This document shows, in pieces, positions 27,601-33,600 of a DNA stretch of 64,000 nucleotides. The stretch spans positions 3,846,001-3,910,000 of the forward strand of contig CM075994.1 in assembly GCA_038087875.1 (NCBI GenBank), given 5' to 3'. Every line of letters starts with the position of its first letter. Position 1 is the stretch's first letter. Origin of the DNA: Malacoraja senta (taxonomy: Eukaryota). The notes beneath the pieces were generated by a model. It saw nothing but the letters and a program-made list of their open reading frames with translations. It had not been told where the DNA came from and ran no database searches. The position numbers and the translations under genes are program-made.

Positions 27601-30600
27601 TTGAAATATTTTTTCATAACAGATATGGACAAACATGTGCAACTCGATGGTGAGTGACGAATTGTTCCTGAGAACCAAAACATAACACTATGTAATTGTG
27701 TTCACTTTTTATAACATTAAAAAAATAATAGGGTCCAATTGAATGGAAATAGTGTGTTATGAACGGGGATAAGAAGCAGCGCCACATAGGTATGAATCTA
27801 TAAATTACTCCTCGTGCCACATACTTGTAAAGGAAGAAAAGGAACGGGAACACAGATGAATGAGACCCAGTGCGGGGAACGGTGAATCACTTTTGGATCA
27901 TTGGTACTTTTTCCGGTTGCAAAGGCGACCTTTTGTAAGAGGGAATGCTTGCATCTGAACTGGAGGAAGATTTGTTATTGCAAATCGTGAGGGTTTAAAG
28001 TAATTTGCCACGAGGGTCTCAGGTTGCAGATAAGGAGCACATAAGAGGTTGGGGGGAGGGGATACTCTTCAAAAGAGCAGGTTGATTAGACAGTACAGCC
28101 AAGAGCACAGAGATGAGAAGTGGTTTATAGCTGAATTTATTGCAGTGCAAGTACAACAAGTAAAATGTCAGTTGAATTCAGAGTGTGAATGTTTCATGGT
28201 ACTTTGATATCCGGAAAGGAAACGTGGCTGAAACAAGTGCTGAATAGCTGCAGGCATGGCAGAGATACAGGCGGGAGAGCAGTGGGTTGCCTTTTGGGTT
28301 AGGGATCACATTAAATGTGCATTGAGAGGATATTCGAGGAGGATGTTCCAATGGGCTACAAGGGTAGAAATTGGAAACAAGAAGTGAAGAATTACTTCCA
28401 GGAAGCATGCGGAATCATAGGGCAATGTTAATCGGAGATGTGAACTTCCTCCGTATTGACAGTATTATCGTGCGTTCTGCTTGTGCGGGGGGTGGTAAAT
28501 GTGTCCAAGCACACTCCCTTAATCAATATATAAATTGTCCTACTGCAGAAGAACCACCAGTAGGGAACAATACAGGACTTGGGCACCATATTTTGTATAG
28601 ACAATGGTTGATTAGGGGTAGTCAGCATTAATTTGTGCGTGGGTCATCGTCTCTCACAAAGCTGTGAGAGTTTACCGATGAGATTAATTTCTTGAATGGT
28701 ACAGGTGCCAGAGGTTATGGATAGCAGGCAGGAGAATTGGTTTAAAAGGAAGAGATGGTTCAACCATGATTGAATGGCGGAGTAGACTTGATGGACCTAA
28801 CTCTACTGCTATCAGTGATGACCTTATAACAAGAGGACGGATAGGTGCGAGGAGGGGGAGAACATCGTTTGGTGGTTGGGACTGGACGTCTATATGGACT
28901 TTATCAAATTATTCGAGAATGGCCGCAGAATAATCGGGAAGGTTATATCGCATGGAATCGGGTTAGGTCACATGAATTGGATACCTCGTTTGTTTAATGG
29001 AAGGAATCAGAGTGTGATGGTGGAAGGTTAATATGTAGACTGGGGGCTTGTGACTAGTGTTGTGCTACAGGGACTGTTGCTGGGCCAATTGTTATTCGTC
29101 ATTGATTTAGCCCGCTTAGATGAGAATTTATTAGGCATGGATAAACGATGTCTCACGATGCGAGTCCACCCACGAGTGATCCCACGAATGATTTAAAACA
29201 AATCAAGCTCGTGGTAATCACGTAGAAATAACGTAGCGGGAACGTCGGAACTCGTGGACGTAACTTAACGACTCGTAACGCTAACGGCACGTACTCGGGA
29301 AACTTGTTAACTCGTGAAAATCTTTCAACATGATGAAAGATTTCCACGAGTCAAATTTGCTCTTGAAGTGACAAATTTAAACTTTTAAACTCGTTGTAAG
29401 AACGTAGTAGCCCCGATGTTTACCGTAGTGACTCGTGAGTCTACCGTGGGATTGGCCTGAGTGTCAGAAGTGAAATGTTGAAGATTTGTCATCTCCGGAG
29501 TACTTGGATAGGTGACGTTTCGGGTCGGGACCTTCTTCAAACTTTAGATCCTACTTTCACCCGAAACGTCACCTGTCCATGTTCTCCACATATACAATAC
29601 AATTTACAATACAATTATTTTTTACAATACAATTTATTTGTCTTTTGGACAAATTTGTCATTAGGACCCCGTTGAGGACCAAACGAAATGTCGTTTCTGC
29701 AGCCATACATTACAAAACGAAGAAGACCCGAGACACAACACAATTTACACATACATCCATCACAGCGCTGTGATGGAAGGAAAAAAAACGTATCTCTCCA
29801 CAGCACTCCCCCCCCCCCCCCCCCCCGATGTCAGAGGCAAAGTCAAAGCCACCGGCGGGCGATGGTGATTATCCCGCGGCCATTAAAGCCACGCCGGTTA
29901 ATGCAGGGTCGCGCACCGGGTCTTGATGTTAGAGCCCCGGCGCGCGCTCGCAAAGTCCGGCGGCCATTCCAAGCCGCGCGGGTGGATAAAGCCCCGCTCC
30001 AGGTGCTCTTCAACCCCGCAACTCGGGCGGGAGAAGTCGCCGCTGCGGAAGCCCCGAAAAGCGGTCTCCCACCAGGGGACCCGCGGGCTTCCGGTGTTGC
30101 CGTCCGCCAGACCCGCGGTTGTAGCCTCCGAATCTCCGGGGGTCGGGTAGCAGCAGCGCTCCACCACAGCTCCACCCGCTCCGGACTCGGCCAGCCCTGT
30201 GACGGTGAGTAGTCCGCAGCTCCACAACTGGAGCCCCAGGTCGTTCCTGCTGGAGGCCGCTCCACGTTGCCCAGCCCCAACGATAACGGAGACCCGACAA
30301 AGAAAAGGTCGGGTCTCCCGTGCAGGGGAAAGATTTTAAAGTCCCCCCCCCCCCACACACATACCCCGACAAAAAAAATAATAAAAAACTACATAAAAAC
30401 GAGACAAAAATAATAAAAAAAGACAGACGGACTGCAGAGGCCGCTGCAAACGAGAGTCGCGCCGCCCACCCGCCGCCCATACTGCCTGACACGTTGAGTT
30501 ACTGCAGCACTGGGGTTTTTTGCGTAAACCAGCTTCTGTAGTTCCTTGTGTTCCAAAATGTAATGCTTTATAAATATCCAGAGATATCTGTCCCGCGGAG

Positions 30601-33600
30601 TTACTCCAGCACTTTGTGTCTGTCTCCCTGGAGATATCGTTTCCCACGCAATGTGACATCTACCGTGCATACATTGCCTACTGTTGTTTTAGCAGCAGCA
30701 ACATAATCTCCCGGTTAGTACACTCAGTGTTGCCGAGGCCTAGTTTATGTAGAGACAAGAAACTGCAGATGCTGGAATCATGATCATAAAACACACACAT
30801 AGTGTTGGAGGAACTCACACAGCGCTGGAGTAACTCAGCGGGACAGGCTGCATCAGCGGAGGGAATGGACAGATGTTGATTCGGCTCGAAAAGAAGGGAC
30901 CCGATCCGAAACGTTGCCTATCCAATCCCTCCACAGATGCTGCCTGACCCGCTGGCTTACATCGACACTTCGTGAGTTCATGTCATAGGAGCAGAATTAT
31001 GCCATTCGGCCCATCGAGTTGCTCCAACACTTTGTATTTCGCTCAACATGCCACCATCTGTGGTCCCCCATGTCTCCATTTGACAGCTGGAAGAACTCAG
31101 CGGGTCATGGAGTCTGAAGAAGGACCCTGACTCGAAACCTCGCCTGCCCGTTTCCTTCCACCGATTTCATGTAGTCACTTTCTCGCCGGTGAGCTACAAC
31201 GAGTGCAACCGTCACCGCTCCACATTGGACCTCAGCAGGAACAATATATTCTACATCAGCCCTGCGCAGTTCGAGAACCTCTCGTTCATCAAGCGTCTCA
31301 ACCTCTCTGGCAATGCCCTCAGCCAACCCTTTAATGGTTCCGAGTTCCTTTCCCTCCCTCACCTGCGCTACCTGGACCTCTCAAACAACCGCATCGACCT
31401 TCTCTACGAGTCCGCCTTTCAGGAGCTGCAGCAACTTCAAGTGCTGGACCTCAGCAACAACAACCACTATTTCCAGATAGAAGGGTTGACGCACAGATTA
31501 AACTTCATCCACACCCTCACCAATCTCTCCAAGCTGATCTTGAGCAAGAACGACATCTACACCTCAGCCGACTCACAGCTGAGGAGCAATTCGCTGAGCG
31601 TGCTGGAGTTCCGGGACAATCAGTTGAATTACATGTGGAGCGACGGCAATTACATGTACATTGAATTATTTGAGAACCTCTCCAACCTGAGCCGCCTCGA
31701 CCTCTCGGGCAACAGACTCGCGTTCATGCCGCATGACGTGTTTGACCACCAGCCCCCGCTACTCAAGGAGTTTGTGCTGAGCGGTAACCAGCTGCGGAAC
31801 TTCAACTGGGGCAGGCTTTACTTGCTAGGCTGGTTCGAGCTGCTGGACCTCGGTAGTAACCTGTTGACCACCGTGCCTCGCATGCTGTCCAACTGCACCC
31901 AGACCCTGCGCGTCTTCAACCTCACCCGCAACCAGATCTCCAAGCTGACCAAGGACTTCCTCCGGGACGTGACCTCCCTGCAGTACCTGGATCTCAGCTA
32001 CAACAACCTGAAGACCATCCAGGCCTCCAGTTTTCCGGACAGCGCCATCAAACACCTTCGCGAGCTGCGGCTAAGCGGCAACCACTTTCTCTGCACCTGC
32101 GACGCCATGTGGTTCGTGTGGTGAATCAATCAGACCACGGTCTACATCCCTCGGCTGGTCACCGATGTCACCTTCGCCTCCCCCAAAGCCCAGCGCGGCC
32201 ACGGCGTCGTCATGGTGGACCTGCACTCCTGCGGGTTGGACTACCTGGGCATTGGCCTCTACACTTTCTCTGCCTTGATCACCCTCTTGCTCCTGGTGAC
32301 CTTGGAAAAATACGAGGTAAGTTGCCTGTGGCTGGAGTTTGCAAACAATTGTATGGGTTGTCACAATTCGTTCAATTATGTGGGGAACGCATATGAGCAG
32401 AATCTGAGAATCGAGCGCGTCCCAGAGAAGCATGCAGCTACATAAGAGGCACGGAAAAGCTGATCATCGGGTCAGTTCTGTCCATGGTCATAGGAGGCTT
32501 TTTATAGTAAACAAAACTGCATGACATCATTTTTATCCATGTGATGATTTTTCCACACGTCGGTAGTCGTTGTTGGCTCAAGAGTAACTCGGGAGAGGAA
32601 CGTGGTACATCGCAGAAATGAGAAGTAAACGGCAAACTTAGACATACATGTGGGTACTCGTTTAAACTCGTGAACATAAACTTGGAATCTCGTAGACAAC
32701 CACGAGTTTGATTTCTTCTTTCACTCGGGATCACTCGTGGGTGGACTCGCACCGTGAGACAGGGCCAATAATTAGTTAGTGTGCAGATGATTCCCAAGAA
32801 GCAAATTGTAGACAGTGATGACGATCGGCAAAAAAATGCATGCCATCTTGGACAGCGATGTAAATGAGGTGAAGATTGACAAGTAGTGTTAAAATCAGAT
32901 AGTATGAGGTGTTGACACAGGGAACTGCAGATGCTGGCATCCTGCCGAGAAAGAAATCCACCCGAATCGTCACCTATTCATGTCCTTCACATATGCGGCT
33001 TGACCCGCTGAGTTACTCCAGTTCTTTGTGTTCTACGCGTGGATGATTGATGCATTGTTGGAAATCAACCCCAGAGTAATATTTTCACAGTGAACGGCAG
33101 TGCTTTAGAGCGTGTTGTCGAACAGCGGGGCCAAAGTATACAGACACATAGCTCGCTTGACGTGGCGTAACAGATAGACGGGTACTGAAGAAGGCTCTTG
33201 GCACGCCAGCCTTCATCAGCTAGGGAAATGATTACGGTAGTCGCGACGTTATGTTGCAGCTGTAGAAGATGTTGGTCAGGCGCTTCTAAACATCGATTTA
33301 ATTAATGAACATGTTGTAAAAACATATGAACTGTACTTCGTTTCAGTTCTTGAATCCAACTTACCTTCACTATTTGACCTTACAGACGAAAAGTTGCGTG
33401 AATTGAAAGCAGGTAAAACTATCAATCAACATTTACTTGATAATGTTCAGTTTGAAATACATTTCAGAATCAAGAAAAGAAAGGCAATTTATTTTAATTA
33501 TTTTCAACGTAAAGTAACAACTGATATCAATTGCCAGTGCCTCTGTCGAATTTGCATCAAGTTACTGAAATGCTGCCTCAGAAATTATTATTCTTAGTTA

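Follow-up and report, generated by a model that had tools for sequence, protein, structure and literature searches.

A multicopy PIF/Harbinger element carrying a TLR7 exon fragment in the genome of the skate Malacoraja senta

Results and discussion

Anatomy of the block

The window (the whole stretch of 64,000 nucleotides analysed here, positions 3,846,001 to 3,910,000 of contig CM075994.1 in assembly GCA_038087875.1) contains a block at 29144-32767 that was confirmed to be a copy of a non-autonomous PIF/Harbinger element with part of TLR7 inside. The cores of its terminal inverted repeats (TIRs; 29149-29183 and, on the minus strand, 32727-32761) are 35 nt long and 97% complementary, as in an earlier note on this DNA (34/35 matches). 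The imperfect extension, put at about 75 bp in that note, measures 67 nt at 85%. A tandem paralogue of approximately 80% identity matches the DNA to the left (5716-6023 versus 28831-29143) and to the right (6022-7424 versus 32773-34145) of the insertion site, and the block is missing from it, as had been noted for position ~6020. The empty site holds a single ATA (6021-6023), and the filled site holds one at either end of the element (29141-29143 and 32768-32770). This sets the span of the element and places its arrival after the duplication, which upholds the order of events proposed earlier.

The left end (29144-29492, plus strand) comprises the TIR core and a subterminal region with 91% identity over 299 bp to L208, a transposase-bearing relative in which the counterpart lies upstream of a MADF-like ORF. 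In the window copy, one base of this end was lost and others were altered in comparison with the family end. The A-type backbone follows in two parts on the plus strand, a short-repeat fragment (29493-29595) and a longer part (30479-31181) that is 88-98% identical to the TLR7-less siblings L122, L123, L126 and L176, all of which switch to other DNA at 31181. The two parts are separated by 883 bp (29596-30478) of an unrelated repeat that is private to the window copy and has a 91% match elsewhere, outside the element. The sister copies L036 and L037 (2725 and 2732 bp) lack this insertion and join the two parts directly. Thus, the mobile unit is 2.73 kb rather than the 3.6 kb originally assumed, and the remaining 883 bp are a later insert.

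Protein matches place the TLR7 coding fragment (aa ~482-854) at 31180-32302 on the plus strand, and its reading reveals a premature stop (W795) at 32122-32124 on the same strand. The right arm (32303-32767, plus strand) also occurs in elements of type C, which carry TLR7, and of type D, which do not. The inner part of this arm is the counterpart of the sequence directly upstream of the L208 transposase start codon, points inward, antisense to TLR7, and includes a TATA-like hexamer (32501-32506, minus strand); it is a putative promoter.

The right end had also been likened to MITEs at 12516 and 22569. A terminal motif of ~14 nt is indeed common to them and nothing further is, while the end of the MITE at 12516 matches another Harbinger family of the same genome; kinship beyond the superfamily motif is not supported. 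None of the 58 frames around the insertion site had a Pfam match, no host gene was identified there (one Atlas query was also empty), and an Rfam search of the block gave no matches. Small exon-like blocks downstream of the site are conserved between the paralogues. The intronic setting given in the earlier note is a putative one.

Copies and insertion sites

When 60 TLR7-carrying loci were examined, they fell into 55 distinct flank groups, or insertion sites. At least one family end was found in 58 of the 60 loci and both ends in 38. A pattern spanning one element-TLR7 junction, which recovers 53 of the 57 known B and C loci, had 87 matches genome-wide (control pattern, 0), and TLR7-carrying elements are estimated to occupy about 90 places in this genome. 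Exact 21-nt TIR matches for the family numbered 709 (control, 0). Three layouts were observed among the 60 loci: type A (three copies including the window), type C (two copies; cargo aa 654-1001) and type B (55 copies), a deletion derivative of C.

Recurrence of the same junctions at unrelated loci had been suggested as the mark of a mobile Pack element, and it was found; members of the wider family mostly lack cargo, as is expected of a Pack sub-family. The alternative offered at the time, a fragment inserted into a resident MITE, fails since the junction recurs 87 times and in 55 flank groups. Most animal Pack-TIRs are single-copy in the part of a published survey used here (PMC8277862), which would favour a one-off event at this locus. 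Such an event has virtually no chance of being correct, as the two other type A copies have the same junctions on other contigs with other flanks, and the paralogous site has no element at all.

Among the 34 independent two-ended copies, TWA was present on both sides in 24 and the 3-bp flanks were identical in 19; in the other 15, eight pairs differ at the middle base only and seven otherwise. The mean pairwise divergence of the copies is 4.5% and their similarity stops at the element ends. Segmental duplication or assembly error, instead of transposition, could be suspected because eight of the 60 loci share flanks (in three groups) and the assembly consists of 6182 contigs. This is extremely improbable, and already refuted for the bulk of the copies, in view of the number of flank groups, the limits of similarity, the TWA flanks, the divergence, the empty paralogous site and the junctions in public sequencing data. 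The B left junction was present in contigs of all four public runs analysed, which carry four organism labels, and one contig of organism B bridged the A right junction. In run X1, one contig matched the window without a difference for 181 nt; the run may come from the same species or sample and is not independent. Contig depth over the core exceeded that over the remainder in the public runs, depth not being equivalent to copy number. No RNA run was listed among the runs containing the sequence, which is uninformative about expression.

The phylogenetic tree drawn for the 588-nt core was star-like, with B copies 1.2-3.9% from the consensus; its bootstrap values were not stable, and it did not show which of A, B and C came first. 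The A and C consensus sequences differ at 6 of the 588 sites, three at the junction and three at CpG-type sites.

The TLR7 cargo

The cargo is the ~1.1 kb of TLR7-like coding sequence, truncated at both ends, that the earlier note described. Against PDB it scored 362 bits for TLR7, 272 for TLR8 and 196 for TLR9, and it is 93% identical to Amblyraja radiata TLR7. It clustered with Amblyraja TLR7 at 100/97 support in a tree of TLR7 rows only, so that the split between TLR7 and TLR8 rests on the scores. Type A cargo encodes the latter half of the ectodomain and the greater part of the transmembrane helix and has neither a signal peptide nor the receptor's TIR domain. Its GC content is 55-56% (43% for the window) and it reads through without introns.

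The TLR7 coding region is one long exon, and the lack of introns is therefore uninformative about a LINE-made retrocopy of TLR7 mRNA that landed inside an element which then transposed. The genome is LINE-rich as well. However, neither cargo reaches the end of the coding region (they stop at aa ~854 and at 1001), and around the cargo there is no trace of a 3' UTR, of poly(A) or of a duplication. In addition, type C cargo is preceded by 376 bp of non-coding DNA. A retrocopy is thus considered very unlikely.

PIF/Harbinger assignment

The Harbinger-like character first proposed from the TIRs is borne out by the TWA flanks and by an element with the same ends that contains a transposase and a candidate MADF-like domain. 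This element, L208 (9.1 kb), shares the terminal motif and is 91-94% identical to the left family end and 91% to the window right end. Its DDE_Tnp_4 domain (E-value 1.2e-20) is broken by stops. Among the transposase elements found, only this decayed copy has the ends of the family itself. The related L209 and L214 have open transposase frames of 435-480 aa (DDE_Tnp_4 E-values 1.3e-32 and 2.8e-30, respectively). MADF_DNA_bdg matches in L208 (E-value 0.006) and L211 (0.0003) were below the Pfam cut-off and covered the first third of the domain only, which is probably split by an intron. None of the first 20 transposase loci had a family end within 1.5 kb, and one of the next 20 did.

Kolobok was also considered and rejected. 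Its target is the 4-bp TTAA; none of the 34 copies had matching 4-bp flanks when read in the register used, and the partner transposase is of the DDE_Tnp_4 type. With the register one base further in, TTAA is found on both sides of L004 and L086 and not of most copies.

Precursors and the capture series

Family members without TLR7 cargo were found (L221, L223-L225; L122, L123, L126; L173), and they include precursors for both backbones. L223 and L224 correspond to type C minus exactly C 4549-5950, while L122, L123 and L126 correspond to type A up to 31181. Compared with intact D, type C has 1.4 kb added at one point, with a loss of at most a base or two of D. Type A has its left arm from the E sub-family and its right arm from C/D. 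The three layouts would go back to at least two capture events. The search for other gene cargo covered nine TLR7-less members, a small sample of many hundreds, and 145 of their 174 interior frames gave one Pfam match (ALKBH8_N), which we take to be a common LINE false match. No TLR7 was found in 20 further family loci, likewise a small sample.

From these sequences we infer that an element likely acquired a piece of the TLR7 exon through template switching while it was being repaired or replicated, and that an autonomous relative with matching ends likely supplied the transposase that later moved the carrier in trans. In the first step, a D-type element would have gained the 1.4 kb (376 bp of non-coding DNA plus TLR7 aa 654-1001) to become type C. 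In the second, legible in the layouts themselves, 1.1 kb flanked by a repeated 6-bp word (the 6 nt shared at the junction) was deleted, which turned C into B, the most amplified layout. Third, and with somewhat better than even prospects, another event may have joined an E-type left arm to TLR7 at aa ~482 while the C/D right arm was kept, yielding type A (3 nt shared at its right junction); probably, the TLR7 piece of an existing C element offered the homology for copying further along the gene. Finally, as can be read at the window site, a type A copy entered ATA after the local tandem duplication, later took up the 883-bp repeat and decayed.

A different route, proposed for plant Pack-TYPE elements in the portion of PMC8903248 drawn on here, starts from two neighbouring insertions around or within TLR7 whose inner ends are deleted and which then move as one unit. 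Type A joins an E left arm to a C/D right arm just as a two-element unit would. We regard this route as doubtful, because type C is an intact D plus 1.4 kb at a single point, where two deletions would have to end. Our account as a whole (a ~90-copy non-autonomous PIF/Harbinger family with a TLR7 exon piece, likely captured by template switching, likely mobilised in trans and most likely carrying the cargo as a passenger) is considered highly likely.

Search for the intact parent gene

Intact TLR7 was not found in the assembly by DNA and protein searches. When the A-only part was used as DNA query, all three candidates were located in elements. In the whole-protein search, 44 of 269 candidates were scored in a stricter first pass and none started before aa 481; in the N-terminal search, 138 of 141 were scored (best 35%); and in the search with the receptor's TIR domain, where all 17 were scored, the TLR7-like matches were the two C elements only. 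Matches at the level of TLR8 and TLR9 are likewise missing from the assembly, and the joint absence of the three genes suggests a probable assembly gap rather than gene loss. Intact TLR7 proteins are known in two other skates (P0001 and P0002). As the parent gene was not found, breakpoints were set against the Amblyraja protein only, and word-sharing on the gene side of the junctions was deduced by back-translation.

Decay and function of the cargo

The pN/pS of the core was 0.84 (0.92 without CpG changes, 0.73 by distinct changes), and the core contained a stop or frameshift in 32 of 57 copies. The cargo appears to decay almost neutrally; an omega of 0.16 is given for elasmobranch TLR7 in the section of a preprint used here (10.64898/2026.03.23.713620). 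Most likely, the cargo is a passenger without protein function.

Against this reading we weighed the idea that selection keeps the cargo, either because it serves as a decoy receptor or because it yields regulatory RNA directed at TLR7. The pN/pS is slightly below 1, and the arms keep stretches upstream of both element genes, pointing inward and flanking the cargo. In addition, reads of a poly(A) RNA library (under a different organism label, 6% of it sampled, strandedness not given) covered the TLR7 core at a depth of 0.4-4 in either mate direction and were absent from the TIR-domain part. On the other hand, 32 of the 57 copies are already broken within the core, the cargo has no start codon or signal peptide, and TLR7-less members were also amplified, so amplification needs no benefit. 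Selection is judged quite improbable, and a protein role is nearly excluded. A bolder scenario has a slim chance: plant-style capture in which TLR7 was taken twice, the first cargo serving as homology for the second, and in which two inward promoters in each of the ~90 copies would drive TLR7 RNA in both sense and antisense orientation, dampening the antiviral receptor in trans; the intact gene might even have been lost from this lineage.

Significance

Gene capture by cut-and-paste elements of animals has been viewed as mostly single-copy and transposition-independent. The skate family is capture at plant scale in a vertebrate, with the relative, empty precursors, captures and a deletion derivative in one genome, and base-resolution tests of the capture mechanism will be feasible when the parent locus becomes available. 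It is also a candidate cause of unexplained TLR7 pseudogenes in Rajiformes. In practice, about 90 decoys of ~95% identity would swamp any PCR, read mapping or annotation that targets aa 654-851 of skate TLR7, and they may also make the real gene harder to assemble. The insertions could serve as presence/absence markers for skate phylogeny.

Comparison with known systems

According to the portion of PMC4482050 used here, PIF/Harbinger elements have a TWA target duplication, short TIRs and a DDE transposase together with a Myb/SANT-like ORF. The skate elements agree in target, TIRs and a DDE relative, which has a candidate ORF of the Myb/SANT-like kind; unlike autonomous members, the window copy encodes neither protein.

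The animal survey of Tan et al. 2021 (PMC8277862), in the sections and supplements consulted, gives four multicopy cases among 370 Pack-TIRs in 100 genomes, with Pack-hAT-N8_XT (Xenopus tropicalis) and Ssk-FB4 (Drosophila) at 3-4 copies and a median cargo of 224 bp. Its 21 PIF-Harbinger rows are from frogs and alligator, and the one cartilaginous-fish row found there (elephant shark) is 0. The block is of this known multicopy kind: host sequence lies in a non-autonomous TIR element with the same junctions at unlinked loci, separate target duplications, short junction words and GC-rich cargo. It differs in having a copy number about 25-fold that published for animals, a coding exon piece of 0.6-1.1 kb, three layouts from at least two captures, and precursors plus an autonomous relative. 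Unlike Ssk-FB4, its cargo is fragmentary and decaying.

Extra pseudogenised TLR7 copies in Rajiformes are reported in preprint 10.64898/2026.03.23.713620, whose section on them gives no number, structure or mechanism and does not name a transposon origin; they are probably the same sequences as the skate elements. Among plant systems, the family resembles Pack-MULE and Pack-PIF elements, in which high-copy non-autonomous PIF clusters contain a sub-group with gene DNA; maize cluster 18, for example, has 52 members without and 72 with gene DNA in the portion of PMC8903248 used here. In contrast to plant Pack-PIF elements, the host is a vertebrate and the cargo is an exon of an innate-immune receptor.

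Window copy and its TLR7 fragment

The element was delimited by comparing the filled and empty sites within the window. A single ATA is found at the empty paralogous copy and an ATA on both sides of the filled copy; thus the element spans 29144-32767 and arrived later than the tandem duplication (5716-6023 paired with 28831-29143, and 6022-7424 with 32773-34145; ~80 % identity), as the earlier note had proposed. The 35-nt inverted repeats described there were located at 29149-29183 and 32727-32761 (97 % complementary). Their imperfect extension is real and measures 67 nt (85 %), not ~75 bp. 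The 3.6-kb block reported as the element agrees with this span, while its unit (type A) is only 2.73 kb, an 883-bp repeat (29596-30478) being inserted in the window copy. This repeat has an A/C-rich, tail-like left end and 91 % copies elsewhere.

The full duplication covers 5716-17169 and 28831-41117 (76-90 % identity). Small exon-like blocks kept in both duplicates near 33340-33412, 34385-34420 and 34594-34730 are candidate exons, and the intron setting given in the earlier note is putative. A tandem array of ~58-nt units lies at 53564-54084.

The truncated TLR7-like coding sequence was confirmed at 31180-32302 (aa ~482-854 of TLR7), with a stop at W795. On the question of TLR7 or TLR8, the best bit score against solved structures was for TLR7 (362, versus 272 for TLR8 and 196 for TLR9). 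The frame is 93 % identical to Amblyraja radiata TLR7, and the two group together (100/97) in a 20-row tree made up of TLR7 sequences; this marks the host as a skate.

Copy number and distribution

When the genome was searched with the fragment DNA, the best 40 of 104 candidates were scored and all were 94-95 % or self; a protein search added 20 loci. All 60 TLR7-carrying loci were fetched and mapped. At least one family end is present in 58 of them and both in 38, and comparison of 60 nt of flank resolved 55 distinct sites. The three shared-flank groups (4, 2 and 2 loci) are segmental or assembly duplicates. L011, L080, L084 and L096 represent a single insertion of the commonest layout (type B) with a damaged right end, multiplied fourfold together with its flanks by segmental duplication.

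A 25-nt pattern over the commonest element-TLR7 junction gave 87 matches with at most 2 mismatches (control 0) and recovers 53 of the 57 known loci with that junction, from which ~90-100 TLR7-carrying copies in the genome is a fair estimate. These counts bear out the suggested mobile Pack element: it is a real, mobile, multicopy Pack-Harbinger family with TLR7 cargo. The wider Harbinger family is larger than this subset; a 21-nt TIR word has 709 exact genome matches (control 0) and the left end has 2003 candidates.

The type B left junction was also found in public-run contigs under all four organism labels, of which organism A is possibly the same species as the window, as was the continuation at 31181 of a TLR7-less sibling (type E). 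The type A right junction is spanned by one organism B contig. Thus errors in this assembly did not create the junctions, and the family is likely to predate the split of several skates.

DNA and protein searches of this assembly did not find the parent TLR7 gene, nor intact TLR8 and TLR9, though other TLR-like loci were found. An assembly gap is more likely than true loss of TLR7, because TLR8 and TLR9 are also missing and intact TLR7 is present in two other skates.

Layouts and capture history

Three layouts carry TLR7. Type C (L034, 3.9 kb, and L035) contains aa 654-1001, so that most of the TIR domain is present. Among the 14 places that match the sequence adjoining it, 6 were examined; the TLR7-less type D elements (L221, L223-L225) share 93-96 % identity with C, and L223 and L224 equal C minus exactly C 4549-5950 (376 bp non-coding plus the TLR7 piece). 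Type B accounts for 55 of the 60 loci and is ~2.55 kb long, with additional inserts in some copies. It shares the left junction of C and differs by a 1.1-kb deletion whose ends fall at two occurrences of GCTCCT. In type A (window, L036 and L037), the left arm is that of type E (L122, L123, L126 and L176), which agrees with A up to 31181 and then continues into other DNA, and the right arm matches the one in C and D.

Type A has 173 codons absent from C, C has ~147 absent from A, and their left arms differ; thus A and C cannot be derived from each other by deletion. The layouts indicate at least two joinings of element to TLR7. As A and C share orientation and right arm, the first TLR7 cargo probably served as homology for the second capture.

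A longer B variant of ~3.5 kb (L076, L079, L082, L083, L094, L100, L104, L108 and L112) differs in that ~0.9 kb of extra DNA follows the left end's first 293 bp. Among TLR7-less members (L056, L071, L075, L121 and L064), some carry a left end at each terminus and long inverted segments in their interior. Such foldback-like members point to frequent rearrangement within the family. A scan of a small sample of family interiors (9 TLR7-less members) revealed no second gene cargo.

Superfamily and autonomous relative

PIF/Harbinger is defined by TWA target-site flanks and a two-gene autonomous element (PMC4482050). On the outer side of the ends, the adjoining 3 bases read TAA or TTA in nearly every case. 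Flanks of 34 independent two-ended copies were identical in 19, differed at the middle base only in 8 and otherwise in 7; the window copy falls in the last class owing to the loss of one base at its left end. The 8 middle-base mismatches (mostly TAA on one side and TTA on the other) exceed expectation from a few percent decay and may reflect repair of Harbinger overhangs at insertion.

DDE_Tnp_4 transposase loci are abundant in the genome (150 of 534 candidates scored), and 1 of 40 examined (L207) has related ends (82-84 %). A search with the L207 transposase reached L208, which is 9.1 kb long and matches the family left end at 94 % and the right end of the window copy at 91 %. It contains a stop-broken transposase (minus strand), a weak MADF-like frame (plus strand) and, centrally, a retroelement. 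Its relatives L209, L210 and L214 have open transposase frames of 435-480 aa and ends 76-84 % alike. A family-related transposase would be the mobilizing enzyme of the TLR7 elements, judging from ends shared with a transposase element.

The flanks and L208 uphold the Harbinger-like nature of the termini; the supposed kinship with the MITEs at 12516 and 22569 is reduced to a common terminal motif. The end of the 12516-13090 MITE matches another Harbinger family of this genome, in which many transposase frames are nearly intact at 440-478 aa (L155, L195-L198). This family was perhaps recently active, as several copies are nearly identical.

Fate of the cargo

Type B copies deviate from their consensus by 1.2-3.9 % (mean 2.3 %), and the 588-nt TLR7 core gives a star-like tree, as in a burst. 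Measured against the consensus, pN/pS over 57 copies (3 near-duplicates dropped) was 0.84; it was 0.92 with CpG changes left out and 0.73 when each distinct change was counted once. In 32 of the 57, the core is interrupted by a stop or frameshift. An omega of 0.16 is given for functional elasmobranch TLR7 in a preprint (10.64898/2026.03.23.713620). At the protein level, the TLR7 cargo is a passenger; it could still act as RNA. The right arm retains the sequence immediately preceding the transposase start, which includes a TATA-like hexamer and points into the cargo in antisense; in the left arm, some of the sequence preceding the MADF-like frame is retained. One poly(A) run labelled as another organism gave a core depth of 0.4-4 reads, too low for interpretation.

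Comparison with known systems

No published report of a TLR7-carrying skate transposon was found in a search of mostly open literature. The 2026 preprint on elasmobranch TLRs cited above mentions extra pseudogenised TLR7 copies in Rajiformes and gives no mechanism there. Tan et al. (2021, PMC8277862) counted 370 Pack-TIRs across 100 animals. Multicopy cases number 4, exemplified by elements with 3-4 copies, and the cargo has a median length of 224 bp; of the rows in their supplement, 21 are PIF-Harbinger, and elephant shark has none. In maize, high-copy Pack-PIF clusters are described (Gisby and Catoni, PMC8903248), and the skate element works likewise. As a multicopy Pack-TIR it agrees in every test other than the parent comparison; what is new is the scale, the coding cargo and the repeated capture.
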